Positions 1,874 to 17,098 of a stretch of 17,098 nt of DNA are shown piece by piece. How positions within the stretch are numbered: position 1 is the stretch's first letter; each line of letters opens with the position of its first letter. The stretch lies in the UHGV virus genome UHGV-1343268, one strand, 5' to 3'. The notes beneath the pieces are model-generated. The model saw only the letters and a list, made by a program, of their open reading frames with translations. It did not search any database and was not told where the DNA came from. The stretch comes from a virus. Made by a program: the position numbers and the translations under genes.

Positions 1874-3013
1874 TCAGCTGCAAATTTCGTTGTTGCTGCA
1901 TGTTATCTCTTCAAGTGCAGCGGCGTTATAATCAACGGAATGATCAACCTGTGATGTAGGTATGCCAAAAAATTCAACCCCTGACATAATCATGTTGCCG
2001 ATATTCTCTCGCTGTTTATCACTGAGCCTGTCCCACCACTCAGGGGATGAATATGTATTTTCGGCCTTTGTGAAGAAAAAATACAGAAGGGTATTGAACA
2101 TCCTGTTAGCTGGGATCTTAATTAGTGTCCGTATAAAACGTCTGATAATTGTTGAAGTTCTCAGCCAACTGAACACTACATATCCCTTACCTCCGCAGGA
2201 AAAAGCATTGAAACATACTTGTTCCGCCGACACTGTAAGATCGCTCAAATCCTGAATTTTGGTCCCATCGAAATCCCTCTCCGGTGAAAGAATTGACGAA
2301 ACTACAATTGGTAAAGGCTCTGCAAAAGTGAAGATAACACTTTCAATTTCTGAAAATTGCCTGCTAAGTAGGATGCGGTCGAGGCTAGTTTTAAGATTAT
2401 TTAATTCAATTATTGCTGCATTTAAGCCACTTTGGTGCTGGTCGATTAATTTCTGAATATAATACTGTTCAACTTGTAGCTTTCCTTTATCGGCATTTTT
2501 AGCAAAATCAGAAGATAGCACTCCCCCTTCTTTGGCATAAATTTCTTTAGACAATGAACGAAACATTAAGGCAAAGCACTGCTCGTCCGTGCCTGTAAAT
2601 TTTTCGTTCTCTAGGCATGAAAATAAGATTCTGTCATGAACTGCACAAAATCCTGTAAAAGTGGATGCCTGATTGATACCGATCTTCTCGGGAAGCCATT
2701 TTCCGTTGTTTCTCATCAGGCTTGCTAAGTTCATTATCACCCCCATGACGTGATTGCTGGAGTCGGCGATCGCCTTAAGGCTACTGCTCTTAGATATCGT
2801 ATGCGCCTGAACGATGCGTTTATCACAATCTTCGTGCATGGATGCTGGCGCATAACATGCCTTTCTCTGCGAGAGAGACTTTGAAAATTTCAGTGCCTCG
2901 GCTTTGGATACCGGAGTTTCACGATCTCGACCAAGATGGCACTTTTTATACTTAAGTCCTGAATTACACCAGCACTTATCATTTCTTCCTAATTTCACTT
3001 TATTGTTTCCCAC
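1874..3013 (-). CDS. Cargo protein with N-terminal SEC-C-type zinc-binding motif, function unknown (about 379 aa); candidate accessory or defence gene
   Basis: ORF on the same strand as D and ogr and inserted between them. N-terminus KCWCNSGLKYKKCH matches the SEC-C metal-binding motif (C-x-C-x8-C-H). Markedly AT-rich compared with the flanking phage genes. The annotated start is a GTG with no clear SD; an in-frame GTG five codons downstream (MKLGRND...) is an alternative. The remainder of the protein has no domain I can name. Confidence 0.7.
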   Translation of the reverse strand: MGNNKVKLGRNDKCWCNSGLKYKKCHLGRDRETPVSKAEALKFSKSLSQRKACYAPASMHEDCDKRIVQAHTISKSSSLKAIADSSNHVMGVIMNLASLMRNNGKWLPEKIGINQASTFTGFCAVHDRILFSCLENEKFTGTDEQCFALMFRSLSKEIYAKEGGVLSSDFAKNADKGKLQVEQYYIQKLIDQHQSGLNAAIIELNNLKTSLDRILLSRQFSEIESVIFTFAEPLPIVVSSILSPERDFDGTKIQDLSDLTVSAEQVCFNAFSCGGKGYVVFSWLRTSTIIRRFIRTLIKIPANRMFNTLLYFFFTKAENTYSSPEWWDRLSDKQRENIGNMIMSGVEFFGIPTSQVDHSVDYNAAALEEITCSNNEICS

Positions 3014-3412
3014 GAAATTAATGTTCTATAACAAAAACACTTATCGAAAATAGGTGTAATTTATCACTCCGGCAGCTAAAAGATCATCTGCCACATGCAC
3101 GATAATAAATCTTCCTTGCGTCATCATCTCCCTCTGTTCTTAAATCAGGTGTTGCCTGTGTGCGGAGGATTCGCGAAGTACAGTAGCCGAAATGCATGAT
3201 CTTACCCATCAATGGTGAGCACGCGATAATAAGTGAGTCCCTAATTGACCACTCATGGCAATACAACTTCAACCAGCATTCATGACCACTATCCGTGGAT
3301 TAACTGTTACATAAGCAACACCTGCTCTAGGCACAAAGCGGGCTGCCAGATTGGGTCTGGCACTGTGCTGTGAGTGTGTCAGTTCTGGTTTGAGTCAATA
3401 CATCTAATTTGC

Positions 3413-4513
3413 TCATTCTGTTTCTGCTATCCATTCCGGGATTTTTGCTTCAAGCTCAAGCTGTGTGGTAAAGCCGCTGTTATCAATGGTGTGCTCGGCT
3501 TTTGCAATAATCCAGTCCTGATTATCGATGTCACTTTTGAAGCCTGTCACCGTGCCATGCATTTCGGGATAGAGTTCTGCGCGTCCACGCGCCAGCGTGA
3601 TGGAGAATGATGCGGCTCCGCGTTGTAGCTGCTGCCACTTTGCCGCCGCTGCACGTCTTGCTGCCTGCTCGTTCTGATAAGTCTTGCGTAACACAAACAC
3701 GTTGCCTTCCGCACCTTCCATATAGTCACCTTCACGGCTGCTGCTTTTCTCCTTTTTCGGTTTGCGGCGTTTCACGCTGACTTTTTTCTTTTTCCCGTAA
3801 TTAAGATCAAGCCAGTAAGCACGTACCCCCGTATACGCTTCGCGGTCAGCAATGCGGAACTGATGGCGATCGCCACTGCTGCGCGTGATGGCGAACGATG
3901 GCAACGGCTGGCCCTGTGCGTTCACGCCACCGCCTGGCATGATGAATAACAGATTACTGCTTTTTACCGTAGTGATTGCGCCCAGCATTTCCGCCATGCG
4001 CGTAAGGAAGGACATGTCGCTTTCTTCGGTCTGGTCGGCGTGGTCGATTTCAATATCCATCAGCATTTCGCTGATTTGTGGTTTCAGACCGTACCGATGA
4101 GCGATGGCGGATACCACGCGCTCAACGGTCACATCATGCCAGGACACCTCACGTTTAACGTTAAATTCATCCCGAAAATCTGCGCTTCTGGCTGAAACAG
4201 TCAGCCTGTCCGGCGGTCCTTCGTGAGCGATTTCATCAACAATGTAAGTGCCTTTTTCTGTCAGCGGTTCTCCTTTCCAGCCAATGAGAACCGTCAGGCG
4301 CGCGCCCCGTGGCGGTAGCTGCAACTGACCATCCGCATCATCCAGCGTGATGGTGAGCAGGTCCGCTTCAAATCCCCGGTTGTCGGTCAGTGACAGGCTC
4401 ATCAGGCGCTCTGCCACGCCGGACAGTGTTTCCCCCTCCGCGAGAATATCAAAATCCGGCATTTTCACGGGGTCTGTGCTCTGACTGAGCAATTGCATGG
4501 TGGTATCGGTCAT
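3413..4513 (-). CDS. D: P2 gpD-like tail protein (late control D family)
   Basis: Supplied ORF 3413..4645; the likely start is the internal ATG at 4513 (MTDTTMQLLSQ...) preceded by GGGAGGGA. Length (about 366 aa) and sequence character are consistent with the gpD family; position next to ogr matches P2 synteny. Confidence 0.88.
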   Translation of the reverse strand: MTDTTMQLLSQSTDPVKMPDFDILAEGETLSGVAERLMSLSLTDNRGFEADLLTITLDDADGQLQLPPRGARLTVLIGWKGEPLTEKGTYIVDEIAHEGPPDRLTVSARSADFRDEFNVKREVSWHDVTVERVVSAIAHRYGLKPQISEMLMDIEIDHADQTEESDMSFLTRMAEMLGAITTVKSSNLLFIMPGGGVNAQGQPLPSFAITRSSGDRHQFRIADREAYTGVRAYWLDLNYGKKKKVSVKRRKPKKEKSSSREGDYMEGAEGNVFVLRKTYQNEQAARRAAAAKWQQLQRGAASFSITLARGRAELYPEMHGTVTGFKSDIDNQDWIIAKAEHTIDNSGFTTQLELEAKIPEWIAETE

Positions 4514-4670
4514 CTGTTCCCTCCCTGTGCGGCATGGTCGCATGTGCGTGCATAGGGGGTTACTGCTTTTTGTTGTCGCCGTGGCGGGAGAACGGCGCAG
4601 GGGAGAGATTACGCGCGTGGTGGGTGATGATTGTTGCCGAATCATTTAACGGATACAAGGGGCTGAAGCT

Positions 4671-5855
4671 ATGAGTGAAACTCGTTTTCATGGTGCCCGT
4701 GTTACGGAAAGTACCGACCTGGTAACAGCGATTAATGATGTTGATTCCAGTGTTATCGGTATCGTGGCAACGGCGGATGATGCGGACGCGGAGCTGTTCC
4801 CGCTGAACAAGCCCACACTGCTGACCCGCGTCAATGACGTGCTGGGAAAATGCGGGACTACGGGGACGCTTTATCGTGCGCTTAAGGCTATTGCAGACCA
4901 GGTGAGCACAAAAGTGATCGTCGTTCGCGTGGCTGAACACAAAGAAGAAGGCGGTAAGACGCAGGATCAACTGGTTATCGGTGGTTCTGAATCTGACGGC
5001 AGCTATACGGGGATGTATGCGCTGCTTGTTGCAGAGCAGGATGAAAGCATCGGATACCGTCCGCGTATTCTGGCCGCGCCGGAGCTGGACACGGAGGCGG
5101 TGACAAAATCCCTGTGCGTGATTGCGGGTAAACTGCGCGCGTTTGTGTATGCCTCATGTCATGACTGTAACACGATGGCTGAGGCAATTACCTACCGCCA
5201 GAAATTCAACGAACGTGAGGTGATGCTCTTATGGCCGGACTTCATCGCCTACAACCCGAAAAGTGGCAAAAACGAAACGTTCCCCGCGCCTGCCTATGCG
5301 TGCGGCCTTCGTGCGTACATTGACCATGAGCAGGGCTGGCACAAATCGCTGTCCAACGTTCCTGTTAAAAATGTGCTGGGGATGTCCAGGCATGTTTTCT
5401 GGTCGTTGCAGGCCGAAGACAGTGATGCCAACAGCCTCAACAACAAAGAAATCACGACCATTATTCGTCGCAACGGGTTCCGCTTCTGGGGCAACCGCAC
5501 ACCGGAAACGAACGCCTACATCTTTGAGGTGTATACCCGAACCGCACAGGTGCTGGCTGATTCAATTGCGGAAGCGCAGTTTGAAACCATCGACAGTCCA
5601 CTGACGCCTGCGAACGTGAAGGATGTTATCAGTGCCATCAGGGCAAAACTGGATTCGCTGGTTACTGCCGGGAAACTGATTGGCGCGGAGTGCTGGTATG
5701 ACGTGGTGGATAACAGCACCACGGATTTACGTCAGGGGCGTGTGCGTATTCGCTACAAATATACGCCCGTTCCGCCACTGGAAGACATGGAGCTTTACCA
5801 GACGTTTACTGATGAATACTTTGAACCCGCATTTGCGGTGCTGGGAGGTGCCTGA
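4671..5855 (+). CDS. FI: Contractile tail sheath protein (P2 gpFI-like)
   Basis: 394 aa. Shares recalled gpFI motifs: DADAE-FPLNKP near the N-terminus, LRAF, WPDF, EQGWHK-LSNV, RRNGFRFWGNRT, YTRTAQV, YKYTPVPPLE. SD AAGGGG 8 nt upstream of the ATG. Confidence 0.93.
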   Translation: MSETRFHGARVTESTDLVTAINDVDSSVIGIVATADDADAELFPLNKPTLLTRVNDVLGKCGTTGTLYRALKAIADQVSTKVIVVRVAEHKEEGGKTQDQLVIGGSESDGSYTGMYALLVAEQDESIGYRPRILAAPELDTEAVTKSLCVIAGKLRAFVYASCHDCNTMAEAITYRQKFNEREVMLLWPDFIAYNPKSGKNETFPAPAYACGLRAYIDHEQGWHKSLSNVPVKNVLGMSRHVFWSLQAEDSDANSLNNKEITTIIRRNGFRFWGNRTPETNAYIFEVYTRTAQVLADSIAEAQFETIDSPLTPANVKDVISAIRAKLDSLVTAGKLIGAECWYDVVDNSTTDLRQGRVRIRYKYTPVPPLEDMELYQTFTDEYFEPAFAVLGGA

Positions 5856-6367
5856 TGGCTGTACCAAAACATCTTCGCTTTTTTACGCTGTTTGTGGATG
5901 GTGAAAACGAAGTGGGTAAGGTGACGTCCGTCACTCTGCCTAAGCTGACGCGCAAAACCGACAGCTACCGGGGTGGTGGCATGATGGGTGCGGTAAGTAT
6001 TGATCTCGGTCTGGACGACTCCGCGCTTGATGCGAGCTTTGTCATGGGGGGCGCAGTTCGTGAGCTGTTCCTTAAGTATGGCGGCACGATTGACGGCACG
6101 CTGCTGCGTTTTGCGGGTGAATATTACACCGATGCAGAAAGCGACCTGTATGAAGTCGAAATGCGCGGACGTGTGACGGAAATTGATATGGGGGAAGCCA
6201 AACAGGGCGAAGCCACATCACACACTTACGCCATTAAAAACACCTACTACAAGCTGAGTGTTAACGATCGCCCGTTGTGGGAGATTGACCTGCTGAACTT
6301 CATTTACCGGAAGGACGGCAAGGACATTGTGCCCGATCGCATCCGTTCCGCGCTCGGGCTTGGCTGA
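5855..6367 (+). CDS. FII: Tail tube protein (P2 gpFII-like)
   Basis: 170 aa. Start overlaps the FI stop (TGATG) with GGGAGGTG as SD. Has the LPKLTRK...YRGGGM motif recalled for gpFII. Sits immediately after the sheath gene as in P2. Confidence 0.9.
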   Translation: MAVPKHLRFFTLFVDGENEVGKVTSVTLPKLTRKTDSYRGGGMMGAVSIDLGLDDSALDASFVMGGAVRELFLKYGGTIDGTLLRFAGEYYTDAESDLYEVEMRGRVTEIDMGEAKQGEATSHTYAIKNTYYKLSVNDRPLWEIDLLNFIYRKDGKDIVPDRIRSALGLG

Positions 6368-6421
6368 TAAGTAATATGCAGGCGGCGCAGTGCGTCGCCT
6401 CTGACTGAAAGGAGTTTCCTG

Positions 6422-6787
6422 ATGAAAGAGACGAAAAACATCGATACCGAAAACACGGTAGTTGCTGACACTGTGAAAGAAACCAGTGAGCGTGGTGTAA
6501 AACTTACCCAACCAATTGAGCGAGGCGGCGAAAAAATCACGTATGTGGAGATCACCGGGGCTATTGAGCAGGCTGGATCTCTGCGAGATTTGTCGCTGTC
6601 TGATGTGCTGAATCTGAAAGCGGAATCCATGTTTACGCTGCTGTCACGCGTGACATCACCGCGACTGGATGAAGTGACGATCAAAAAAATGGCATCCCGT
6701 GACTTTATTCAGTTATGTGTGGTTGCCGTAAATTTTTTGAGCGGTGCGGACTCTGGCGGGAAGAACGAACAGGCGACGGAAGCCTGA
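6422..6787 (+). CDS. E: Tail assembly chaperone (P2 gpE-like), zero-frame product
   Basis: 121-aa ORF with SD AAAGGAG, placed between the tube and tape-measure genes. Contains the slippery site TTTTTTG at 6733-6739. Confidence 0.85.
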   Translation: MKETKNIDTENTVVADTVKETSERGVKLTQPIERGGEKITYVEITGAIEQAGSLRDLSLSDVLNLKAESMFTLLSRVTSPRLDEVTIKKMASRDFIQLCVVAVNFLSGADSGGKNEQATEA

Positions 6788-6951
6788 TCACGGTTGTGTG
6801 CTTTGAGCACATAGAAGACTTTGTGGCAGATATTGCCGTTATTTTTAACTGGTCGCCCGCCGAAATCTTCATGATGACGCCCGGCGAAGTGGTTAGCTGG
6901 CGTGAGCGGGCGGCACTTCGCAGCGGGAATGCAGACAATGAAGACTCTTGA
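6422..6951 (+). CDS. E': gpE+E' fusion chaperone made by programmed -1 ribosomal frameshift
   Basis: The overlapping ORF 6715..6951 is in the -1 frame relative to E (start coordinates 6422 and 6715 differ by one in frame) and has no plausible start of its own. The heptamer T6G at 6733-6739 sits in the overlap. This matches the conserved E/E' frameshift of P2 and the analogous lambda G/GT. The E' ORF ends where T begins. Confidence 0.75.
6733..6739 (+). promoter_or_regulatory. Slippery heptamer TTTTTTG for the -1 programmed frameshift E to E'
   Basis: Seen in sequence, in the E/E' overlap with the correct frame relationship. Confidence 0.7.
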
Positions 6952-9745
6952 TATCCGGGTCGCTTTCAGCGCCGTTGACAGGCTGACCCGGCCTGCCGAA
7001 AACGCCCGCCGCCTGATGGGGCAGTTTGGTGACTCCATCCAGCGAACGCAGGGGGCGATTAAAAATCTCGAGCGTCAGGCTCGTTCATTTGAGCGCGCCC
7101 GCGACGCTGTCAGTAAAGCGGATGCGGGTATCGTGAAAGCACGACGCCAGCTTAACGCCCTTAATCAGTTACAACGCACGGGTACAGTGCTCAGCGAAAA
7201 ACAACAAAAGCTGATGCAGCAGTTAAGCACCCGGCTTGAACGCCTGAATGAATCGCGCACACGGGAAATTCAGAAAATGCGGGAGCTTGGCGGAGAGCTG
7301 AAACGCCACGGCATTTCCCTGACAGGCAGCGATAACACCATCCAGCAGGCCATCAGACGCACCGAACAGTACAACAACCAGCTTGAACGCGAACGGCAGG
7401 CGCTTGCGCGTGTAACGCGGGCGCGTGAGTGGTATTCGCGCGCGCAGGAAACCGCGGGAAAACTGAAAACAGGTGGTGCGCTGGCAATTGGTGCGGCAGC
7501 GGCGGGCGGCTATGCTGCCGGGCGTTTTTTGCAGCCCGCGATCGGGTTCGGCAAAGAGATGTCCCGCGTTCAGGCGCTGACGCGAATCGACCAGAACAGC
7601 CCGCAGTTTAAGGCGCTGCGTGAGCAGGCGTTAAAACTTGGCTCTGAAACGCAGTTCACCGCAGGCGATGCCGCCAGTGGGCAGGCATTTCTTGCAATGG
7701 CAGGCTTCACACCGCAGGCCATTCAGGCTGCGCTTCCCGGAGTGCTGAGCATGGCAACGGCTGGCGGTATGGATCTCGGCGAGACGGCAGATATTGGCTC
7801 AAATATCCTGACGCAGTTCGGCCTTTCTGCTGACCAGATGGACCGGGTCGGTGACACACTCACCGCAGCGTTTACCCGTACCAACACTGACCTTCGCGCA
7901 CTGGGCGAAACCATGAAATATGCAGGTCCGGTGGCGGGTAAGCTGGGAATATCGCTGGAGCAGGCCGCAGCGATGGCTGGTGTGCTGGCGAATATGGGCA
8001 TCAGAGGGAGTGATGCCGGGACGGCAATGCGTGCCAGCCTGGCTCGTCTGGCATCACCGCCAAAGGCGGCGGCAGAAGCTCTGAAAGAGCTGGGCGTGTC
8101 CGTCTCGGATGCCGGGGGTAAAATGCGCCCGATGGAGGATGTGCTGGCCGACCTTTATAAAGCCACCCGCAAATACGGGGAAGTTGACCGGGTATCGTTC
8201 TTTAAGGACATTGCCGGAGAAGAGGCTTTCACATCGTTTATGGCGCTCGTTGATGCAGTGGGTGACGGTTCCTTACCCAAACTGAGAAAAGAACTTGAAG
8301 GCGCGCGCGGTGAGGCTGAACGCACAGCAAAGGTTATGGCCAACAACCTTGACGGCGATCTGAAATCACTCGGCAGTGCATGGGAAGGGTTGCGCATCCG
8401 CATTGCAGATCTGATTGACGGTCCGCTGCGTTCTGTCACGCAGTGGCTCACGCGGGTGGTATCAAGGGTGACGGCGCTGGCGCAGGCCCATCCGGCACTG
8501 ACGCGCCAGCTACTGATAGCAGGCGGTGCGTTGCTGGCAATGACTGCAACGGTTGGCTCGTTGTCGCTGGCTATTGGTGTGCTTGCTGGTCCGCTGGCAA
8601 AACTGCGTCTTGGTTTTTCTCTCCTGACCGGATCAATGAATGCTGTCAGGGTCCTGCCAGCACTATGGGGAATGGTGACGGGTTCCGTTTCTTTACTGGG
8701 AGGCGCTATCGGGGCGCTGTTCAGTCCGGTTGGTCTTATCGTGGCTGCGCTTGCCGGAGCTGCCGTCCTTATCTGGAAATACTGGGATCCCATCAGGGCA
8801 TTTTTTGCCGGGGTGTTCAGCGGGATTATGGAAAGGCTGAACCCGTTGCGTGAAACCTTTGAACGGTTTGGCCCTGTTTTTGACGCAATCGGAAGCGGGA
8901 TCAGCCAGGTGTTTAACTGGTTTAAATCGCTGCTGTCACCGATGGAGTCCAGCAAGGAAACGCTGGATAAATGTACCAGTGCTGGCGAGATATTCGGTAA
9001 CGTTCTTGGCGGTGCGTTACAACTTGTTCTGACACCTGCAAAAATGCTACTGGATACGCTGGCGTGGATACTTGAAAAACTTGGCGTCCTTCCGGATGAA
9101 GCGGAAAGGGCGCGCAAGAAAATCGAAGACGCACAGCGTGCGGCCATTCTTCAGGATAAGGTTGCCTTACTTCAGGGGGACCTGGCGAAAATCAATCCGC
9201 CGAAGCCTGTGGAAAATGGCAATGGCACCGGAGGTGATAAACCCAAAGACAACAAACCGCTCACAGACAGCAATACCGGGACGCTACGCAGACTCAGCAA
9301 AATTGCTGATAACACAGGTAAGCTGGTTGATGAGACGAAAAAACGCATTGGCCCTGGCGATATTGTCTTTAAGAACCTGCCCCGCGCACTTGCTGTTCGT
9401 GGGGAGTGGCAGGAGCGGAAGATTGCGCAGGTCAGTAAGCCTGCCCCCGCAATTAATATCACACCCGTAGTCCCGGCTCCGCTGCCTCCGGCGCTGGTCC
9501 CTGTTGTTGCGGCCAGCTCCCGCCCGGTGGCGGAGGCCATACGATCGCCAGTGGCATCAGTTCCTGCAGCTTCCCGTAATCGGGAGCCTGCTGTCTCCAG
9601 ATTTGGCGGTGAAATTCATGTTCATCTGCATAACGTTGTTACGCAGAATCCCCGCGAACTGGCGAAACTGGTCGGTGAAATGGTCAGGGCAGAAATGGAA
9701 CGGCGCGCCCGTGCCGGGCGTGGCAGTTTTTACGATAAAGATTGA
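6938..9745 (+). CDS. T: Tail tape measure protein (P2 gpT-like)
   Basis: Very long ORF (supplied as 6902..9745, 947 aa). Coiled-coil-rich N-terminal half, hydrophobic Gly/Ala-rich segments in the middle, located directly after E/E'. Start is uncertain among GTG 6902, ATG 6929 and ATG 6938; 6938 is chosen because GGGA lies about 9 nt upstream. Confidence 0.9.
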   Translation: MKTLDIRVAFSAVDRLTRPAENARRLMGQFGDSIQRTQGAIKNLERQARSFERARDAVSKADAGIVKARRQLNALNQLQRTGTVLSEKQQKLMQQLSTRLERLNESRTREIQKMRELGGELKRHGISLTGSDNTIQQAIRRTEQYNNQLERERQALARVTRAREWYSRAQETAGKLKTGGALAIGAAAAGGYAAGRFLQPAIGFGKEMSRVQALTRIDQNSPQFKALREQALKLGSETQFTAGDAASGQAFLAMAGFTPQAIQAALPGVLSMATAGGMDLGETADIGSNILTQFGLSADQMDRVGDTLTAAFTRTNTDLRALGETMKYAGPVAGKLGISLEQAAAMAGVLANMGIRGSDAGTAMRASLARLASPPKAAAEALKELGVSVSDAGGKMRPMEDVLADLYKATRKYGEVDRVSFFKDIAGEEAFTSFMALVDAVGDGSLPKLRKELEGARGEAERTAKVMANNLDGDLKSLGSAWEGLRIRIADLIDGPLRSVTQWLTRVVSRVTALAQAHPALTRQLLIAGGALLAMTATVGSLSLAIGVLAGPLAKLRLGFSLLTGSMNAVRVLPALWGMVTGSVSLLGGAIGALFSPVGLIVAALAGAAVLIWKYWDPIRAFFAGVFSGIMERLNPLRETFERFGPVFDAIGSGISQVFNWFKSLLSPMESSKETLDKCTSAGEIFGNVLGGALQLVLTPAKMLLDTLAWILEKLGVLPDEAERARKKIEDAQRAAILQDKVALLQGDLAKINPPKPVENGNGTGGDKPKDNKPLTDSNTGTLRRLSKIADNTGKLVDETKKRIGPGDIVFKNLPRALAVRGEWQERKIAQVSKPAPAINITPVVPAPLPPALVPVVAASSRPVAEAIRSPVASVPAASRNREPAVSRFGGEIHVHLHNVVTQNPRELAKLVGEMVRAEMERRARAGRGSFYDKD

Positions 9746-9751
9746 GGAGTC

Positions 9752-10246
9752 ATGGCCATGATGATGATCTACGGCATGTTTGTTTTTGAGCTGCGCACGT
9801 TGCCGCATCAGCAGTTACAGCAAAATAAAAGCTGGCGGCATGTGAAAAATGAACGCGTTAACCGTTCAGCAAGCTGGCAGTATATCGGGGCAGGCGATGA
9901 TCGCATCGTTCTTTCTGGTGTGCTTTATCCTGAAATTACAGGTGGCGAAGTGTCGCTTTCGTTGCTGACCACGCAGGCATATACAGGACGCCCCTGGCCT
10001 CTGATTGATGGTGTCGGGCAGATTTACGGCATGTATGTACTGACTGAAACGAATACGACCCGCTCCGAGTTTGATCGCTACGGTAAGGCGAAAAAGATAG
10101 AATTTTCACTGACTCTTGAACGCTGTGATGAGGATTTGCGGGAGCGCCTGCAATCCTCATCGTTCAGCGATATGTTGTCCGGCTTCAAAGATAAGGTGAC
10201 ATCATCCCTTAATAGCGCGGCCAGCTCAGTTAAGGGGCTGCTCTGA
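9752..10246 (+). CDS. U: Tail protein U (P2 gpU-like)
   Basis: 164 aa, SD GAGGAG, immediately downstream of T. Size and position match P2 gpU. Confidence 0.82.
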   Translation: MAMMMIYGMFVFELRTLPHQQLQQNKSWRHVKNERVNRSASWQYIGAGDDRIVLSGVLYPEITGGEVSLSLLTTQAYTGRPWPLIDGVGQIYGMYVLTETNTTRSEFDRYGKAKKIEFSLTLERCDEDLRERLQSSSFSDMLSGFKDKVTSSLNSAASSVKGLL

Positions 10247-10322
10247 TTTAACGTATGTCGCCAATTTCCTGATGAAGGTGACTGGCGACTTGCTGTTGTA
10301 TGTCCTTCTCAGAAAATTGTTT

Positions 10323-10351
10323 TTGAATAACAAACAACAGGATTTTATAAT
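10323..10351 (+). promoter_or_regulatory. Near-consensus sigma70 promoter for the acetyltransferase cargo gene
   Basis: TTGAAT (10323-10328), 17-nt spacer, TATAAT (10346-10351), in an AT-rich intergenic region about 50 nt upstream of the cargo gene SD. Confidence 0.6.
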
Positions 10352-10402
10352 CTCTTAACCTTATAACATGTGTGGTCTGAAATAATAATTAAGGAGATTA
10401 TC

Positions 10403-10975
10403 GTGCTGTCTTACCTAATGGCAATTCACTTTGTTTTATTTGGGAACTCTACTAATTTAAAAAACTTCTGGAAACATGAAGTAATTCGGCGGAAACGTAT
10501 GGATATCTGGAGGCTTTTAAGAGAGAAAAAGCAGCGTAACAGGAATTTCCTTTTCTGGTGGCGGTTGGCTAACGAAATGTATATTAATGGTAATAAATTA
10601 CATAAGAAAGCAGCCAAGAAGTTAAACAGTAAAATAATTAACAAATTTGGTTGCGAAATTGGATTGGGCGCAAATATTGGAAAAGGGTTAACAATTCCCC
10701 ATCATGCTGGAATTGTTGTTCATTTTGCTGTTGATGCTGGTGAAAATCTGGTGTTACGACAGAATACGACCATTGGACAGATAGATGGTGACATACCTGG
10801 TTCAAGAGTAAAAATTGGTAGCAACGTTGATATCGGAGCTAATTGTTGCATCATTGGATTATCCCGTAAAATTGGGGATAATGTAAAAATAGGTGCAATG
10901 TCTTTTATAAATAAAGATATACCATCGAACTGCACATATATAACTAAAAAGAGCGGTGCTGTATTGTATAAATAG
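10403..10975 (+). CDS. Hexapeptide-repeat acyltransferase, serine-O-acetyltransferase (CysE/WcaB)-like; cargo gene
   Basis: The C-terminal half carries repeated [LIV]-G-x-x-x-x hexapeptide units (IGLGANIGKGLTI, KIGSNVDIGANCCIIG, KIGDNVKIGAMSFI) resembling the left-handed beta-helix of CysE-type acetyltransferases. Strongly AT-rich. SD AAGGAG (10391-10396) precedes an in-frame GTG at 10403; the ATG at 10418 is an alternative start. The supplied ORF begins at GTG 10370. Confidence 0.78.
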   Translation: MLSYLMAIHFVLFGNSTNLKNFWKHEVIRRKRMDIWRLLREKKQRNRNFLFWWRLANEMYINGNKLHKKAAKKLNSKIINKFGCEIGLGANIGKGLTIPHHAGIVVHFAVDAGENLVLRQNTTIGQIDGDIPGSRVKIGSNVDIGANCCIIGLSRKIGDNVKIGAMSFINKDIPSNCTYITKKSGAVLYK

Positions 10976-10984
10976 AGTACATAA

Positions 10985-11020
10985 AGCCATCGATATTTCT
11001 ATCGATGGCTTTTTCTTTTT
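10985..11020. terminator. Strong intrinsic terminator between the convergent acetyltransferase and tfa genes
   Basis: Perfect 11-bp stem AGCCATCGATA (10985-10995) / TATCGATGGCT (11000-11010), loop TTTC, then TTTTCTTTTT. The T-run overlaps the tfa stop codon. Confidence 0.75.
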
Positions 11021-11597
11021 ATTGTGGGGCGACTGGCCACTCAATATCTGCTGCTACTGTTGTATCAACACGATGCAACAATACTCGATATGTCTTCCAT
11101 GCAGCCAGTAACGATGTCTCTTCCTCCGTCGCAATATCTAAATCTATAGCATCCTGAAGTGGTGCAATATGCTCACTGGCTACCTGCATCAGGCTGTTTT
11201 TTGTTTCTTCCGCCTCCCTTATCCGAAATAGTTTTTCTGCTTCTGCATCTTTCACCCAGGATGTGCCGTTCCACTTCTGATACTCTCCATACGGCGACAA
11301 CCAGGTAACATTTTCCGGTAATGGACCGAGTTCAGAAATAAATAACGAGTCCCCTGATGCCACGTCATAAACCGTTTTACCCCGATGGTCTTCAACGAGA
11401 TGCCACGATGCCTCATCACTGTTGAAAACGGCCACGAAGCCAGCCGGAATATCTGGCGGGGCAATATCGGTACTGTTTGCAGGCAGACCTGTATGAGGTG
11501 GAATGTATGCATCACCTTCACCAATAAACTCATTGGTTCCGGTCAGTAGATTATAAATTTTTATGGTCCGTGAGTGTTCACTCATTCTGAATGTCAT
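11019..11597 (-). CDS. tfa: Tail fibre assembly chaperone (lambda Tfa / P2 gpG class)
   Basis: 192 aa. C-terminal [30 protein letters not shown] resembles the conserved Tfa C-terminus. The start ATG overlaps the tail-fibre stop (TAATG), indicating translational coupling. Confidence 0.85.
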
Positions 11598-13916
11598 TAT
11601 GCAAGCCTCACAATATAGTTAAATGCGATGTTTTTTACGGTGTTTTCTTTGTTACCCGTAGCGTTAACGGTGATGGTGTGTCCGTGGGGACCAATAATGA
11701 CAGAATGGGCATGAGCACCAATGCCGATAGTGTGGTTATGGGCACCGATATATACATTGTGAGCATGCCCGCCTGCGCTCGACGTGGTACCAGTACCTAA
11801 CGCAGCGTTATAACCGGCTGATACACCATTCCCCGCGCCAGTGTGACCAACAGGTATATTGTGTGAATGATTTCCAGCGCTATTCGTAGTTTTTGTGCCG
11901 TAATCAAATGAACTGGTCGTTTTAGTACCGTAATCAAACGACGATGTGGTTTTCGTCCCCAAATCCGTACTGGATGCGCTGGCGCTGTGGGTGTGCGATT
12001 TAATGCCGTCCTGTTCCTGAGACAATACGGCACGACCACTGCCGGGCTTGCCCTTAATCGTCCAGCCACGCATATCAGGAATAACGCCTGACGGATAAGC
12101 GACTGCAAGTTTCGGGTATGCAGATTTGTCAAAAGTCTGCCCCTGCATCAGGGCATAGCCAGACGGAACGGTATCTGATGGCCACGGGATTGGTGCACCG
12201 ACTGGATAAAACTCTGCAGGAGGATGAGCCGAGGTGTAAAGCTGCGCCCACGGCGACCAGTTTGCGTCGGTCGTATCCCGTCGTGAACGAATAAATGCCG
12301 GAGCATGAGCACCGCTTGTACCACTCCAGCCGATGAGTAACTCACCTTCGCCAACGGCTGTCATCCCTTTCAGGTGAATGATATTTCCATACGCTGTTGG
12401 ATATCCGTTGTTATACACCTCGTATAACTCAAGACCTGTTGCCCCCTGCGTATTGTCTGTCAGCGCGGTTACCCGACCTTTTGAAGACAGATTAACTGAT
12501 GATACTGCTGTTCCACCTGACGGTAATGCCCCGATCTCTGATGCCGTTGGCTTATTTCTGGAGTTATAGTCCCTTCGCCAGCCAGGTGAATAATCTGNNN
12601 NNNNNNNNNNNNNNNNNNNNNNNNNNNNNNNNNNNNNNNNNNNNNNNNNNNNNNNNNNNNAATGCGGATCGTCATCGCTGACTTTATCCCCATTACTTCA
12701 ATGACAGCTCCTGCGAGATGAATATTACCGCAGCCAGTATCAGTAATGATTTTATTATTGCCATAAGACCAGGAACCCTTGCACATCCAGTATGGATGGT
12801 TAAATGCTCCCTGAGAATCCAGCCACTCGATAAACTGTGCAGTCGTCCAGTCTCCTGTTGTTGTGCTTACTGACCCACCGAAGGCACGGCTGGCACCAAT
12901 ATTTTTCGTAAAGGTGTCTTTGCCAGGGATATCCGCACCGTTCTTATCTTTCTGCAGACGTTTCTCAGCATTGTCATTGGCTGCTTTTACTGCCTTTGGC
13001 GTTGCTGCCAGCGTTTCAGACGTGCTGTTGGTCGCGCTGCTTAGCTGGACTATCCCTTTCTGTGCTGTCGTTGCATCCTGTGCGGTGTATTTCCCGTCAG
13101 CCAGGTCATACGCGGCCTTAACTGCTTTTGGCGTTGCCGCCAGCGTTTCAGACGTGCTGTTGGTCGCGCTGCTTAGCTGGACTATCCCTTTCTGTGCTGT
13201 CGTTGCATCCTGTGCGGTGTATTTCCCGTCAGCCAGGTCATACGCGGCCTTAACTGCTTTTGGCGTTGCCGCCAGCGTTTCAGANNNNNNNNNNCAGCCA
13301 GGTCATACGCGGCCTTAACTGCTTTTGGCGTTGCCGCCAGCGTTTCAGAATCGCTGTTAGTGGCGCTACTGAGTTGAACAAAGCCTTTTGCGGTCAGCGA
13401 GGCATCCGGGTGACATCGTGACTGTTCATGCTCTTTCAGTTTGTTATCCACGTAATCCACTGTGGCCATCACCATGGTGTTATCCACGGTAAGCGCCACA
13501 GTGGCAGTGCTGGATACGGTCAGAATGGTGCGAAATGTTTGTGCACGTCCGGACCCTTCGGCAACGGCTGGCTTGTAACTTTCGGCAGTATTGCCCACCG
13601 CGATTAAATCGCCGTGCTCATCAAACACACCAATTTCCCGGATCCAGAATCCGCCCGTTTCTGGAGGAATAACCAGCTCCGCAATAATGCGGTTCTGATG
13701 TGTTGCGTCCAGGATGACGCGATTAACAGTGTGTCGCCACACCTCATGCACCAGACGGGTCTGCTTACTGTCTGGTGTGGGCAACGCGCCGCCACCGTCG
13801 CCCACGGCCATATGAGTCAGGCGGACAGGCTTACCATCTGGCGCGGCTGCCTGAGCTAATTTTTTGGCACCTGTATCGGTGATAACGGTTTTAAATTTTC
13901 GTGTTGTGGTACTCAT
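11597..13916 (-). CDS. H: Mosaic tail fibre protein (P2 gpH-like N-terminus, lambda Stf-like C-terminus); interrupted by two N-runs
   Basis: N-terminal ORF (13916 downward) [24 protein letters not shown]...HEVWRH...[15 protein letters not shown]...[13 protein letters not shown]...[20 protein letters not shown] matches the gpH N-terminal baseplate-attachment region as I recall it. C-terminal segment ...[34 protein letters not shown]...HxH repeats...[11 protein letters not shown] matches the lambda Stf-type tip. By manual translation the frame is continuous from the 12598-12660 gap to the stop at 11597. True length and frame across the gaps cannot be determined. Confidence 0.82.
12598..12660. 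other. Run of 63 ambiguous bases (N), assembly gap or masked segment inside the tail fibre gene
   Basis: Seen in sequence. Confidence 0.95.
12981..13400. repeat. Tandem 132-bp direct repeats (44-aa coding units) inside the tail fibre gene
   Basis: Units 13021-13152 and 13153-13284 appear identical on reading. Diverged partial copies flank them (about 12981-13020 and 13295-13400). The 10-N run at 13285-13294 replaces roughly 77 nt of a unit. On the coding strand the unit encodes ...[44 protein letters not shown]... Confidence 0.9.
13285..13294. other. Run of 10 ambiguous bases (N) inside the tandem-repeat array, probably a collapsed-repeat gap
   Basis: Seen in sequence; the flanking sequence shows repeat phase is not preserved across the N-run. 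Confidence 0.95.
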
Positions 13917-13918
13917 GC

Positions 13919-14449
13919 TTAATCGTCCGGATAAATGGTAATAACTTCACCGTCATGAGTTGCCGCCGCTGCAAAAATATCCCCCGGAATTTCCTGAATG
14001 ATATTCAGCCCTGTCATGTGGCGGCTGACCGGACGGGCATCAGCAATCAACCGCTCCATTTCCAGATACATTTCCTCCGTCACGCCACTGTCCAGTGTGC
14101 CGACTTCAACGGTAAATGTTCCCGGTTCTCCGCCGAACTCCCACCACTCAGACACGCGAATGAGGTATCCCAGCGGCTCAATGGCCCTGCGCAGTGCGCT
14201 GATGGTCCCTTTGTGTCGGTGTGTCAGCCATGCATCACGAATCACCTGTCGTTTTGTCTCTTCCGGCCAGTTGCGATCCCAGCGGTCAACGGAAAATGCC
14301 CAGGCGAGATAAGGCAGCAGGTGCACCGGGCAGGTGTCCGGCGACCACAGCGTGTTGAGGTCTACCGGGATGTCTGTAATGCGCGTTCCGACAGCTTCGG
14401 CACAACGCATGAAACTGCTGGCTGATGGTGGTAACAGTGAATTACTCAT
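13919..14449 (-). CDS. I: Baseplate protein (P2 gpI-like)
   Basis: Supplied ORF 13919..14482; the likely start is the internal ATG at 14449 (MSNSLLPPSASSFMRC...), which overlaps the J stop (AATGAGTAA). Motifs LW-PDTCP and LPYLAWAFSVDRWD match recalled gpI. Sits between J and H as in P2. Confidence 0.88.
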   Translation of the reverse strand: MSNSLLPPSASSFMRCAEAVGTRITDIPVDLNTLWSPDTCPVHLLPYLAWAFSVDRWDRNWPEETKRQVIRDAWLTHRHKGTISALRRAIEPLGYLIRVSEWWEFGGEPGTFTVEVGTLDSGVTEEMYLEMERLIADARPVSRHMTGLNIIQEIPGDIFAAAATHDGEVITIYPDD

Positions 14450-15338
14450 TGCGCCCACCTTCGCTGATGGTGAACGACTCACAGCGCGCCGCCTGTATGT
14501 CGCTGATGGCCATATTCTGTGTGGGTTCGATTATCTCCACGCGTTGCACACCGTGCACATGCAGTGCGGCAGCAATGGCGGACAACGCCACGTCCTGACC
14601 GATAAGCCCCTGCTCAGCCAGCCACTTCCTGAACGACGATTCAGCCGCCGCCAGAATAGGTTCGGATTCCGGGCCGGGGTAAAAGTACAGTTTTGCATTC
14701 AGCCGCCATGTCACGATTCTGGCGCTCTGTACCGTCAGGCGGTCGGCCACCGGGCGGGTATCCTCTGCATTCAGAACGGCGCGAACGGTATTAAGCAACG
14801 CCTCCGTTGCTGTGCCGTCGCCTTCAGTGGACAGGATGGAAACCGTCACATTTGCCGGAGACGGACTGATAGCCCGCGCATCACGCACCAGACCGCTGGC
14901 GCTGCGGGCAAAATACTCGTATGCACCTGACGGGCCAGCAACACTCAGGCCATCGTACGCCCGCTGCGCCCGCAGTCTCAGCGATGTGTCGCTTTCCATC
15001 ACCGCGTCGGTGGTATCCGTTGCCGGAGTGATAACCAGGCGCTTTGTGTTCATATTGCCCGCGAGGTTGTCCAGGTCTGTCCCGGTGCTGTGGCTTAACA
15101 TGCAGGCGCGTGCACCCTCATTGACCCGCTGGCGTAACAGCATTTCACGAAACGCTGTTGTCTGGGCGATAACGTTCAGGGGTTCCGATTCCAGCTCCAG
15201 CGCGGCGGAGACGGCTTCACGCTGTTCGGCAGGATAGGACGCAATCATCATGGCCTTTGTGTCAGCCAGAATTGCCTCAAAATCAGGCTTCGCGATGATG
15301 GCGGGTTCCGGTAACTGGGAAAGGTCAACAGCAGGCAT
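14442..15338 (-). CDS. J: Baseplate assembly protein J (P2 gpJ-like)
   Basis: 298 aa, between W and I, size as expected for gpJ. Assignment rests mainly on synteny and size. Confidence 0.88.
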   Translation of the reverse strand: MPAVDLSQLPEPAIIAKPDFEAILADTKAMMIASYPAEQREAVSAALELESEPLNVIAQTTAFREMLLRQRVNEGARACMLSHSTGTDLDNLAGNMNTKRLVITPATDTTDAVMESDTSLRLRAQRAYDGLSVAGPSGAYEYFARSASGLVRDARAISPSPANVTVSILSTEGDGTATEALLNTVRAVLNAEDTRPVADRLTVQSARIVTWRLNAKLYFYPGPESEPILAAAESSFRKWLAEQGLIGQDVALSAIAAALHVHGVQRVEIIEPTQNMAISDIQAARCESFTISEGGRNE

Positions 15339-15341
15339 GAT

Positions 15342-15692
15342 TTACTCCCTCAGCGTGATGGTTAACTCAACATTCTGCATGGTCTGCATGACAGTGCCCG
15401 ACAGCGTCACCCCGGCGCGGCCTCCCGCTTTCCAGACAACGTCGATGGCATCCAGGGCAATGCGGGGTTCCCATCGTGTCAGCGCAATCACGGCAGCACT
15501 CATGCATTGCAGACGCGTGGTGTTATTCATGGGTTCGTCAATCAAATCAGGCACAAGGCTGCCATATTCCCGTCGCATAACCCGGCTGGCCAGCGGGGTG
15601 GTCAGGATGTCCCTGACTGACTGTTTCAGGTGCTCCGTATCGTTCAGGTTTCCCGTCCCGTCCGGATTCATTCCTGTGTAGCGGGTTGTCAC
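15342..15692 (-). CDS. W: Baseplate wedge protein W (P2 gpW / T4 gp25-like)
   Basis: 116 aa, size and position (V then W then J) as in P2. Start overlaps the V stop (ATGA). Confidence 0.85.
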   Translation of the reverse strand: MTTRYTGMNPDGTGNLNDTEHLKQSVRDILTTPLASRVMRREYGSLVPDLIDEPMNNTTRLQCMSAAVIALTRWEPRIALDAIDVVWKAGGRAGVTLSGTVMQTMQNVELTITLRE

Positions 15693-16270
15693 TGCGGGCC
15701 TCCTGTCGAATCGCTGCCACCTTTAACGCCACCGTGTTTATGCGTATGCACTGTGATACCGTTTGAGGTGAAATTGCCGCCGCTGTGCGTGATATTGCCG
15801 CTCATCTTTCCCCCTTTTGTGACGTCAAGCGTCGCCGTTCTCAGAAGGTTTGTGCATTCCACGACGGGCGTATCCAGTTTCACGCTGACGGATGCCTGCA
15901 GGCTGGCTGTTTTCATGCCGCTGGCGCTCAGTGCGCCAGCGTCTGCGTCGTAGCGGAACACCGCGCCGTCCGGTGCGGTGATCACGATTTCTTTCAGGCT
16001 TTTGCCGGGGGCCGGACTGGCATCACTCCACAGACTGCCAATTATCATGGCGGTTTCCGGGTTGCCGCCAATGCAGGCAATTACCACCTGTTCGCCTGGT
16101 GATGGCGGTAGCCACACATTGAAGGCTCCCGCGCGCGTGGTGTTCCAGCGCAGCCAGCCTGTTTCCAGTTCGCCGCTGCGAACGCGCACGCGCCAGGACT
16201 TCTCATCAACTTCAGAGATGATCCCGGTGCGGATGATGTTGCTCAGCAGTCGCATGAGTTCTGCGCTCAC
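15689..16270 (-). CDS. V: Baseplate spike / assembly protein V (P2 gpV-like)
   Basis: 193 aa with a Gly-rich C-terminus; lies upstream of W. Start overlaps the stop of the preceding gene. Confidence 0.85.
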   Translation of the reverse strand: MSAELMRLLSNIIRTGIISEVDEKSWRVRVRSGELETGWLRWNTTRAGAFNVWLPPSPGEQVVIACIGGNPETAMIIGSLWSDASPAPGKSLKEIVITAPDGAVFRYDADAGALSASGMKTASLQASVSVKLDTPVVECTNLLRTATLDVTKGGKMSGNITHSGGNFTSNGITVHTHKHGGVKGGSDSTGGPQ

Positions 16271-16911
16271 CGTACAGCCTCCGCAATCCGGCCCAGCACC
16301 GTGTTATAAATCAGGCGCTCATCTGCCTGGCTGATACCCAGCAGCTCACGTACCGGGTAATCGGTGAAAATGCCCGGCGCAACCTGATCGCGCTCACCGA
16401 ACTGATGAACGCGTGCAATACGTGCGGCCACGCCGCTGTAACCCACCGTCACACCGGAAGCATCTGCACGGGCTTTCAGGTAGCGGGCGGTGCGCAGTTT
16501 TACGAACATGGGGACGCGCCTGGTGCTGTCCTGGTTGATGCGCTGGGTGCGTATTTCCAGAAAACGGTCAATGTCATCCCGGTAAAACGTGCGGATATTG
16601 TTTTTATCCTCATCCCACCCGGTAATGGTTCGCCCGTATTTCCCCGTGTCGTGATGCCAGTTTTTCAGCGTGCGTGCTTCGTTATTCCAGATAAAGCGAA
16701 TGCGCTCCTGTATCCGGGTTACGCGGCGTCTGCGTGGTGTCCATTCGGTCCCGTCCGGCGCTTTTTGTGACCGGATACGTGCCTGCTGGGCGCGACGTAA
16801 ATCCTGTGCCAGCTTTCTGGCGATGTTATTGATGGCCTGCTGATTCAGGCTGTCGCGGATAGCCTCAAAGGTTTCATCCACGCGGGTGAATGCCTTATCC
16901 ATCGCTTTCAC
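16267..16911 (-). CDS. S: Virion morphogenesis / tail completion protein (gpS-like)
   Basis: 214-aa ORF immediately upstream of V on the same strand, the position of P2 S. Start is GTG at 16911 or ATG at 16902 (GGGG about 8 nt upstream). Assignment rests mainly on synteny; it is larger than P2 gpS (about 150 aa). Confidence 0.55.
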   Translation of the reverse strand: MKAMDKAFTRVDETFEAIRDSLNQQAINNIARKLAQDLRRAQQARIRSQKAPDGTEWTPRRRRVTRIQERIRFIWNNEARTLKNWHHDTGKYGRTITGWDEDKNNIRTFYRDDIDRFLEIRTQRINQDSTRRVPMFVKLRTARYLKARADASGVTVGYSGVAARIARVHQFGERDQVAPGIFTDYPVRELLGISQADERLIYNTVLGRIAEAVR

Positions 16912-17098
16912 CCCACGTCACATCCTGGAATACATGCGACCAGTCGCCTTCGGAAGAAGGCAGACGGGGTTTTGGCTCCGGCAGGTGTTCTGCCTGCGGT
17001 GTGCCCTGACTGTTGCGCGTGATGCGAACGCGTTCCCGCAGGGGGAGCGTAAACAGGAGATCGGCGCTGTCATCGTCATTGATAACGGCAGAAAATTT
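16895..17098 (-). CDS. 3' portion of an upstream late gene, possibly gpR-like tail completion protein (partial, continues beyond the window)
   Basis: Manual translation of the minus strand gives an open frame from the window edge to TAA at 16895-16897 (...LLFTLPLRERVRITRNSQGTPQAEHLPEPKPRLPSSEGDWSHVFQDVTWGESDG). It overlaps the S start. Identity is inferred from position only. Confidence 0.35.
   Translation of the reverse strand, partial: KFSAVINDDDSADLLFTLPLRERVRITRNSQGTPQAEHLPEPKPRLPSSEGDWSHVFQDVTWGESDG

Follow-up and report, generated by a model that had tools for sequence, protein, structure and literature searches.

Exact 132-nt tandem units in the tail-fibre gene of a P2-like Escherichia coli prophage: a probable length polymorphism of the fibre shaft and its traces in short-read assembly

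The viral genome UHGV-1343268, analysed here as one stretch of 17,098 nucleotides (nt; hereafter the window), carries a tail-fibre gene in which head-to-tail copies of a 132-nt unit lie close to runs of N. These N-runs are the only two in the window (12598–12660, 63 N; 13285–13294, 10 N), and they raise a threefold question: how many units the gene contains, whether the number differs between carriers of the same allele, and what sequence the N-runs stand for. We put the probability at about 80% that the gene holds a length-polymorphic array of exact units in the fibre shaft, and that the N-runs arose from short-read de Bruijn-graph assembly.

The two units at 13021–13152 and 13153–13284 differ at none of their 132 positions. 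Tandem Repeats Finder reports a period of 132 with 2.2 copies and 98% matches over 12989–13284, within which the perfectly periodic tract comprises 278 nt (13007–13284). A perfect duplicate of 132 nt cannot be a chance occurrence. On the minus strand, each unit encodes an in-frame module of 44 amino acids (aa). A sequence-only reading of this DNA had described identical 132-bp units at 13021–13284 beside a 10-N gap, with a 63-N gap approximately 0.6 kb downstream, and this description holds: both N-runs lie within one gene, in whose direction of transcription the 63-N run follows the 10-N run at a distance of 0.62 kb. The elements of the array and its joins, in that direction, are the following.

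13350–13400, minus strand: unique beginning of the first PF03406 module, preceding the exact units; the sequence diverges from 13350
13295–13349, no strand: 55-nt copy of 13230–13284 at the start of the right-hand contig, an overlap of one k-mer with the left-hand contig
13285–13294, no strand: 10 N written where scaffolding joined two contigs, at the fork between repeat loop and exit; the real content would be −55 nt with two units or +77 nt with three
13153–13284, minus strand: exact unit B, 132 nt, a 44-aa module with the PF03406 period
13021–13152, minus strand: exact unit A, 132 nt, identical to unit B
12889–13020, minus strand: terminal diverged module, of which the first 14 nt alone continue the perfect period
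12598–12660, no strand: 63-N sized scaffold gap, which stands for 67 nt

The terminal module matches the exact unit at 63 of 132 nt and 17 of 44 aa, with 82% identity over the 55-mer.

The 10-N run is a contig overlap or loop branch, not missing sequence of known size. The 55 nt to its left (13230–13284) are 100% identical to the 55 nt to its right (13295–13349). The perfect period stops exactly at 13284, base 13350 differing from base 13153, which makes this position the fork point of a de Bruijn graph with k = 55, where a path either takes another turn of the repeat or exits. A scaffolder would have joined two contigs at this fork and left their 55-mer overlap in place. Gap-free relatives lack the extra 55-nt copy seen at 13295–13349. 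In one of them, GCA_052505665.1 (L004; L numbers denote related loci), three blocks are 100% identical to the window, and the two that adjoin the 10-N run share exactly 55 nt; L004 thus carries two exact units.

Copy number was compared across carriers of the allele. Further loci were found by exact look-up of the gpI protein encoded in the window, and lengths by exact look-up of synthetic full-length fibre proteins in a collection of approximately 15 billion proteins, with the following result.

One unit: 708 aa, 7–10 contigs
Two units: 752 aa, 9–14 independent contigs
Three units: 796 aa, 5 contigs, four of which are complete chromosomes

One exact unit is present in L011, L012, L018–L020 and L035–L041; two in L004, L013, L014, L016, L021 and L025–L034; and three in L015/L023 (CP056613.1, a complete chromosome of 5.23 Mb) and L024. 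Draft genomes of isolates include GCA_012092695.1 and GCA_052409825.1 with one unit and GCA_011933585.1 and GCA_011981885.1 with two. Exact look-up in the same collection returned no form with zero, four, five or six units. An interim view that the number is fixed at two, based on the gap-free L004, was withdrawn once P0027, which is the window allele minus one unit, and the gpI look-up had given one- and three-unit versions.

The forms differ on backgrounds that are otherwise the same. Six loci (L013, L015, L016, L017, L019 and L020) show 100.000% identity to the window over all shared non-N sequence (approximately 7 kb). L023 with three units, L025 and L028 with two and L036 with one have no mismatches in the 10 kb upstream and 0–3 downstream, and the one-unit L037 is 100% identical to the window over 4585–12597 and 13295–17098. 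Overall, the one- to three-unit forms share backgrounds that are identical over 7–22 kb. The array therefore has the features of a variable-number tandem repeat, namely exact head-to-tail repeats and a copy number that varies (one, two or three) on near-identical backgrounds, with 0–3 mismatches in approximately 20 kb of flank. The earlier suggestion that the scaffold leaves the copy number unsettled, and that this number may vary, is borne out to that extent. The 708-, 752- and 796-aa forms are all open reading frames (ORFs); an on/off phase switch is excluded, the unit of 132 nt, or 44 codons, being a multiple of three.

Assemblies fail at this array elsewhere as well. The array in L017 is interrupted by an 89-N gap, and L022, a Logan contig, stops 567 + 30 nt into the gene, where a k = 31 unitig would be expected to end on meeting a repeat. 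Of the 164 collection blocks with the gpI protein, 124 have it on no contig of 5 kb or more. Exact-pattern scans for the 55-mer in genome contigs and viral contigs, and for the unit-to-unit junction in metagenome contigs, found nothing.

Several observations weigh against the interpretation given above. The three-unit form is the only one seen in complete chromosomes (four of its five contigs). Every one- or two-unit form comes from a draft or metagenome assembly, and most of the one-unit forms are MEGAHIT contigs. Tandem repeats are known to be under-counted by short-read assemblies (PMC6868369). The exact unit occurs in none of 5,426 complete RefSeq E. coli genomes, a set that does not include NZ_CP056613.1, and these genomes hence provide no independent check; the best match to the unit in these genomes is 95.6%, in lambdoid side-tail-fibre (stf) genes. 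Finally, the choice of two units over three for the window itself leans on the presumed defaults of scaffolders.

Much of this evidence could be read to mean that the differences in copy number are an assembly artefact, all carriers having three units, or some other fixed number, and short-read assemblers collapsing the array. The occurrence of the 796-aa form in chromosomes and of the 708-aa form mostly in MEGAHIT metagenome contigs would fit such a collapse, as would the documented under-counting of identical tandem domains (PMC6868369), and identical flanks across the forms are what one underlying sequence would produce. We consider this explanation unlikely. The restriction of three units to long assemblies is also expected from detection bias, because a perfect tract of 410 nt rarely assembles from short reads and arrays longer than k cannot be assembled in full; it does not decide the matter. 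Moreover, on graph logic, unitig-type assemblers (MEGAHIT with k = 109–141, Logan with k = 31) should not be able to skip a well-covered loop edge and should break instead (compare L022). The longest exact repeat is 14 nt in an allele with one unit, which gives a linear path in any assembler, and at least 146 nt with two or more, which gives a well-covered back-edge in graphs of k ≤ 141. Those MEGAHIT contigs that pass uninterrupted through a single unit (L037–L040) would thus lack unit-to-unit junction k-mers and represent true one-unit molecules. Nor do the forms sort by method: the ‘METAG-scaffold’ pipeline gives both one-unit (L041) and two-unit (L029, L032 and L033) forms, and a SPAdes-style NODE contig (L024) yields three units. 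In addition, alleles of the wider family that are frequent in large contigs and chromosomes differ by whole-unit insertions or deletions. The polymorphism of one to three units is very probably real.

For the window genome itself, the number of exact units is at least two, because the unit-to-unit junction is present in the left-hand contig, and probably exactly two. Scaffolders such as SPAdes write a minimum ‘artificial gap’ of 10 N when two contigs are estimated to abut or overlap. There is a smaller but appreciable chance that the 10-N gap hides one further unit and that the true fibre is the 796-aa, three-unit form. Two and three units are indistinguishable to an assembler with k = 55, the three-unit form occurs on a background identical to the window over 9608–17098, and the corresponding tract of L017, with its 89-N gap, measures 931 nt as written, which is nearer to the three-unit expectation (963 nt) than to the two-unit expectation (831 nt). 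Three units would, however, require 77 nt to be missing at the join, yet the other gap in the same scaffold is well sized (63 N for 67 nt). The 10-N run would also fit a clamped non-positive estimate, and two units make up the most frequent full-length form.

The sequence-only reading had the repeats coincide with both gaps. This is correct for the 10-N run, which lies at the repeat branch between its 55-mer flanks, and incorrect for the 63-N run, which is unrelated to the repeat. All 34 related loci in which both flanks are present, L004 included, have 67 nt at this site, and 30 of the 34 share one sequence; the estimate made by the scaffolder is therefore only 4 nt off. Translated, the 67-nt fill gives TTPTTSTGGGTTNAQFTYINHG, with one base left over that begins the following (Thr) codon. 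On comparison with these relatives, what the 63-N run hides is ordinary, non-repetitive sequence. Around it, the window (11921–13191) is 97.5–98.4% identical to a lambdoid stf gene of the ‘prophage tail fiber N-terminal domain’ kind in another E. coli (L010, 1478–2752), and matching E. coli genomes hold a median of two places that resemble the fibre region. It is plausible that this likeness, together with the second place, tangled the short-read graph around the 63-N gap. The same two facts could be taken to suggest that the scaffold wrongly joins a P2-like H gene to a lambdoid stf gene, so that the tandem duplicate lies in no single gene. This is scarcely credible, given that the N-terminus, the exact units and the distal part are contiguous and 100% identical to the window in over 25 independently assembled gap-free contigs, some of which are complete chromosomes.

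Neither N-run preserves the reading frame as written, and the fibre gene consequently appears as three ORF fragments. The gene was reconstructed by deleting the 10 N together with the duplicated 55-mer and by filling the 63-N run with the 67 nt of the relatives. The result is an open frame of 2,259 nt, encoding 752 aa, that is identical to an existing protein (P0122); the three-unit version has 2,391 nt and 796 aa. The sequence-only reading had further proposed that the real gene might be considerably longer than the 2.3 kb represented, and this proposal fails: either length is close to the 2,320 nt of the scaffold, and no form with four to six units was found. Four or more units, or other sequence hidden in the gaps, would still be conceivable from the assembly-graph loop, which can in principle be traversed any number of times, and related fibres have up to six modules. 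Such a length is nevertheless highly improbable. The collection holds no exact four-, five- or six-unit protein of this allele, albeit long arrays rarely assemble from short reads; the 63-N gap corresponds to 67 nt in every relative with both flanks; and the size of the 10-N run speaks against a gap of 209 nt or more.

The gene that bears the repeat is, judged by synteny and domain content, the P2 gpH-type tail fibre of a P88/Xuanwuvirus-like E. coli prophage. Its parts and immediate neighbours are as follows.

13919–14449, minus strand: gpI baseplate protein, 176 aa (PF09684), the exact-match handle used for finding the same prophage elsewhere
11597–13916, minus strand: tail-fibre gene of P2 gpH type (synteny and Pfam), 2,320 nt as represented, including both N-runs
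13458–13901, minus strand: N-terminal baseplate-attachment domain, aa 6–153 (PF12571 Phage_tail_fib, 182 bits)
11600–12211, minus strand: collar and T4 gp37-like His-x-His needle tip, aa 549–752 (PF07484; PDB 2xgf, E 1.2e-77)
11019–11597, minus strand: tail-fibre assembly chaperone tfa (PF02413 Caudo_TAP, E 1e-40; RefSeq annotation of relatives)

The N-terminal ~300 aa (aa 1–319) are 93% identical to the fibres of P88/Xuanwuvirus and 68% identical to P2 H. Three copies of PF03406 are recognized in the reconstructed fibre (206 bits against a gathering cut-off of 22, E 4e-62), the best stretch being aa 173–213, which covers profile positions 1–41 of 42; this agrees with the earlier view of the units as in-frame 44-aa shaft modules of a tail fibre. 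A spacing of 44 aa separates successive occurrences of the PF03406 motif, both in the window protein and in 119 of 120 homologues. The middle of the fibre matches the Mu fibre protein S among PDB sequences, and the distal end (11600–12211) is the predicted receptor-binding end. Homology to the structures of Mu S and T4 gp37 suggests a trimeric, baseplate-mounted fibre that binds a receptor on the host.

The T4 gp37-like tip contains a second, less regular repeat. A 30-nt in-frame tandem repeat at 11886–11945, with copies that are 73% identical, encodes a recurring decapeptide motif, and these decapeptides vary in number and sequence among relatives (fewer in L010, a variant copy in L001).

Variation by whole modules extends to the wider family. 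Close homologues have two to six modules, always spaced by 44 aa, and an identical adjacent pair of modules is found at the protein level in 25 of 120 homologues. The common alleles of 686 and 642 aa are 98.2% identical and differ by one contiguous indel of 132 nt; their perfect period-132 runs of 149–161 nt are as long as that of the window allele. These observations allow a mechanism to be proposed. The repeat region would form the proximal shaft: the N-terminal attachment domain is followed by a short array of 44-aa PF03406 modules with the exact 132-bp units in the middle of the array. Exact, in-phase direct repeats are substrates for slipped-strand mispairing (replication slippage) or for unequal homologous exchange, and such events would add or remove whole modules with the frame kept, giving fibres of 708, 752 and 796 aa. 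We infer slippage or unequal exchange as the origin of the copy-number changes, and each module would add to the length of the trimeric shaft in its proximal part, between the attachment domain and the receptor-binding distal end. It is doubtful that the array acts as a fast, reversible shaft-length switch within clonal populations, the ambiguous join then reflecting a mixture of two- and three-unit (or one-unit) molecules. If it did, module number would tune adsorption or host range, for example through the reach of the fibre across O-antigen or capsule.

The homology to stf (L010) begins inside the PF03406 array, as if the fibre were a mosaic with its crossover in the repeat. Work from the 1990s by Haggård-Ljungquist and by Sandmeier reportedly identified these conserved motifs of fibres as places where unrelated phages exchange sequence, a view with which a mosaic junction inside the array is consistent.

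The fibre cassette lies in a P2-like tail module with the gene order gpV-gpW-gpJ-gpI-fibre-tfa (Pfam matches of the window ORFs), and the same layout, adjoining serS, is annotated in complete E. coli chromosomes (RefSeq annotation, L001–L003). Genes for the sheath, tube, tape measure and gpU and for a hexapeptide acetyltransferase converge on the cassette from the left. A plus-strand block from sheath to gpU and a minus-strand block from gpV to tfa thus face each other across the acetyltransferase gene, whereas the P2 order is co-linear. This convergent layout is not a scaffolding error, because complete E. coli genomes are annotated with it too. The hexapeptide/serine O-acetyltransferase gene itself (10370–10975, plus strand) is convergent to tfa, with gpU on one side and the fibre cassette on the other; in the lambdoid prophage of L010, too, a serine acetyltransferase gene adjoins tfa, which suggests cargo travelling with the fibre-tfa module. 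An invertase-switched fibre of the Mu G, P1 C or e14 P type had been suspected from a 201-aa ORF beside tfa and from gaps at possible crossover sites. It was ruled out: the 201-aa ORF is this acetyltransferase and not a recombinase, and there are no convincing inverted repeats, those within 10000–14000 being short and imperfect.

Three further regions of the prophage differ among relatives. A 379-aa ORF at 1874–3013 (minus strand), beyond gpD (3413–4645, minus strand), has an N-terminal SEC-C motif as its sole Pfam match; in the closest relatives, the same prophage end holds ogr, hok and serS (L003 and L023) or a PIN_12 protein (L027 and L035), and it appears to be a position of variable cargo. 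At the other end, immediately past window position 17098, the lysis genes and gpR of L013–L016 and L023 are separated by a gene for a 626-aa DUF1737/SASA/DUF6645 protein. So large a gene is unusual inside a P2-like late operon, and part of it would fall just outside the window. Lastly, L023 (CP056613.1) shows no difference from the window over 9608–17098 and approximately 5% divergence over 3403–9607 (sheath, tube and tape measure), with differences clustered at 6000–7000 and 7500–8500; the comparison suggests a recombination breakpoint close to where the tape-measure gene ends.

The likely polymorphism has practical and experimental consequences. Because of two scaffolding artefacts, annotation would yield a pseudogene or three fragments; the gene can be repaired with confidence save for an uncertainty of one unit. 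Exact domain repeats in receptor-binding genes of phages bias short-read catalogues of fibre diversity, most assemblies breaking at this array. Conversely, the 708-, 752- and 796-aa forms constitute a near-isogenic natural series in which the number of PF03406 modules could be tested against fibre length, adsorption and host range.

Among known systems, the closest in architecture are P2 gpH and the P88 fibre, which share the position after gpJ and gpI and before tfa and the succession of PF12571 and PF03406 modules. The window fibre differs from them in its distal two thirds, which are ~98% identical to lambdoid stf, and in its T4 gp37-like tip. It differs from other alleles in that its internal modules are exact copies at the DNA level, neighbouring units elsewhere being 81–95% identical. 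The 44-aa unit corresponds to the PF03406 (Pf2) repeat of lambda Stf, Mu S and the collagen-like fibres of enterohaemorrhagic E. coli prophages. This repeat, first described in lambda stf, is found in many fibres of prophages and is poorly understood in structure and function (PMC3368898). Length variation of such fibres has been reported in their collagen and coiled-coil segments and not in Pf2 number (PMC3368898), whereas carriers of the window allele differ in Pf2 number and are otherwise the same in background.

Outside this family, the fibres of P2-like (RSA1-like) tailocins of Pseudomonas syringae have natural variants that lose entire repeats and are shorter (PMC12208367). They resemble the window fibre in being built of repeated shaft or knob units and in their whole-repeat indels, and differ in the repeat family and host, in the divergence of their repeats and in that the indels lie between distinct fibre types. 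On the assembly side, the counterpart is the Ig-like array of yrIlm in Yersinia ruckeri, in which exact tandem domains longer than k or the read length lead to contig breaks, gaps and possibly low counts (PMC6868369). A failure of this type accounts for the N-runs and for the abundance of short contigs at the fibre locus; yrIlm encodes a bacterial surface adhesin rather than a phage fibre, and here some of the low copy numbers are probably real. Taken together, the finding is a well-documented instance of a known theme, a length-polymorphic repeat array in a phage fibre.

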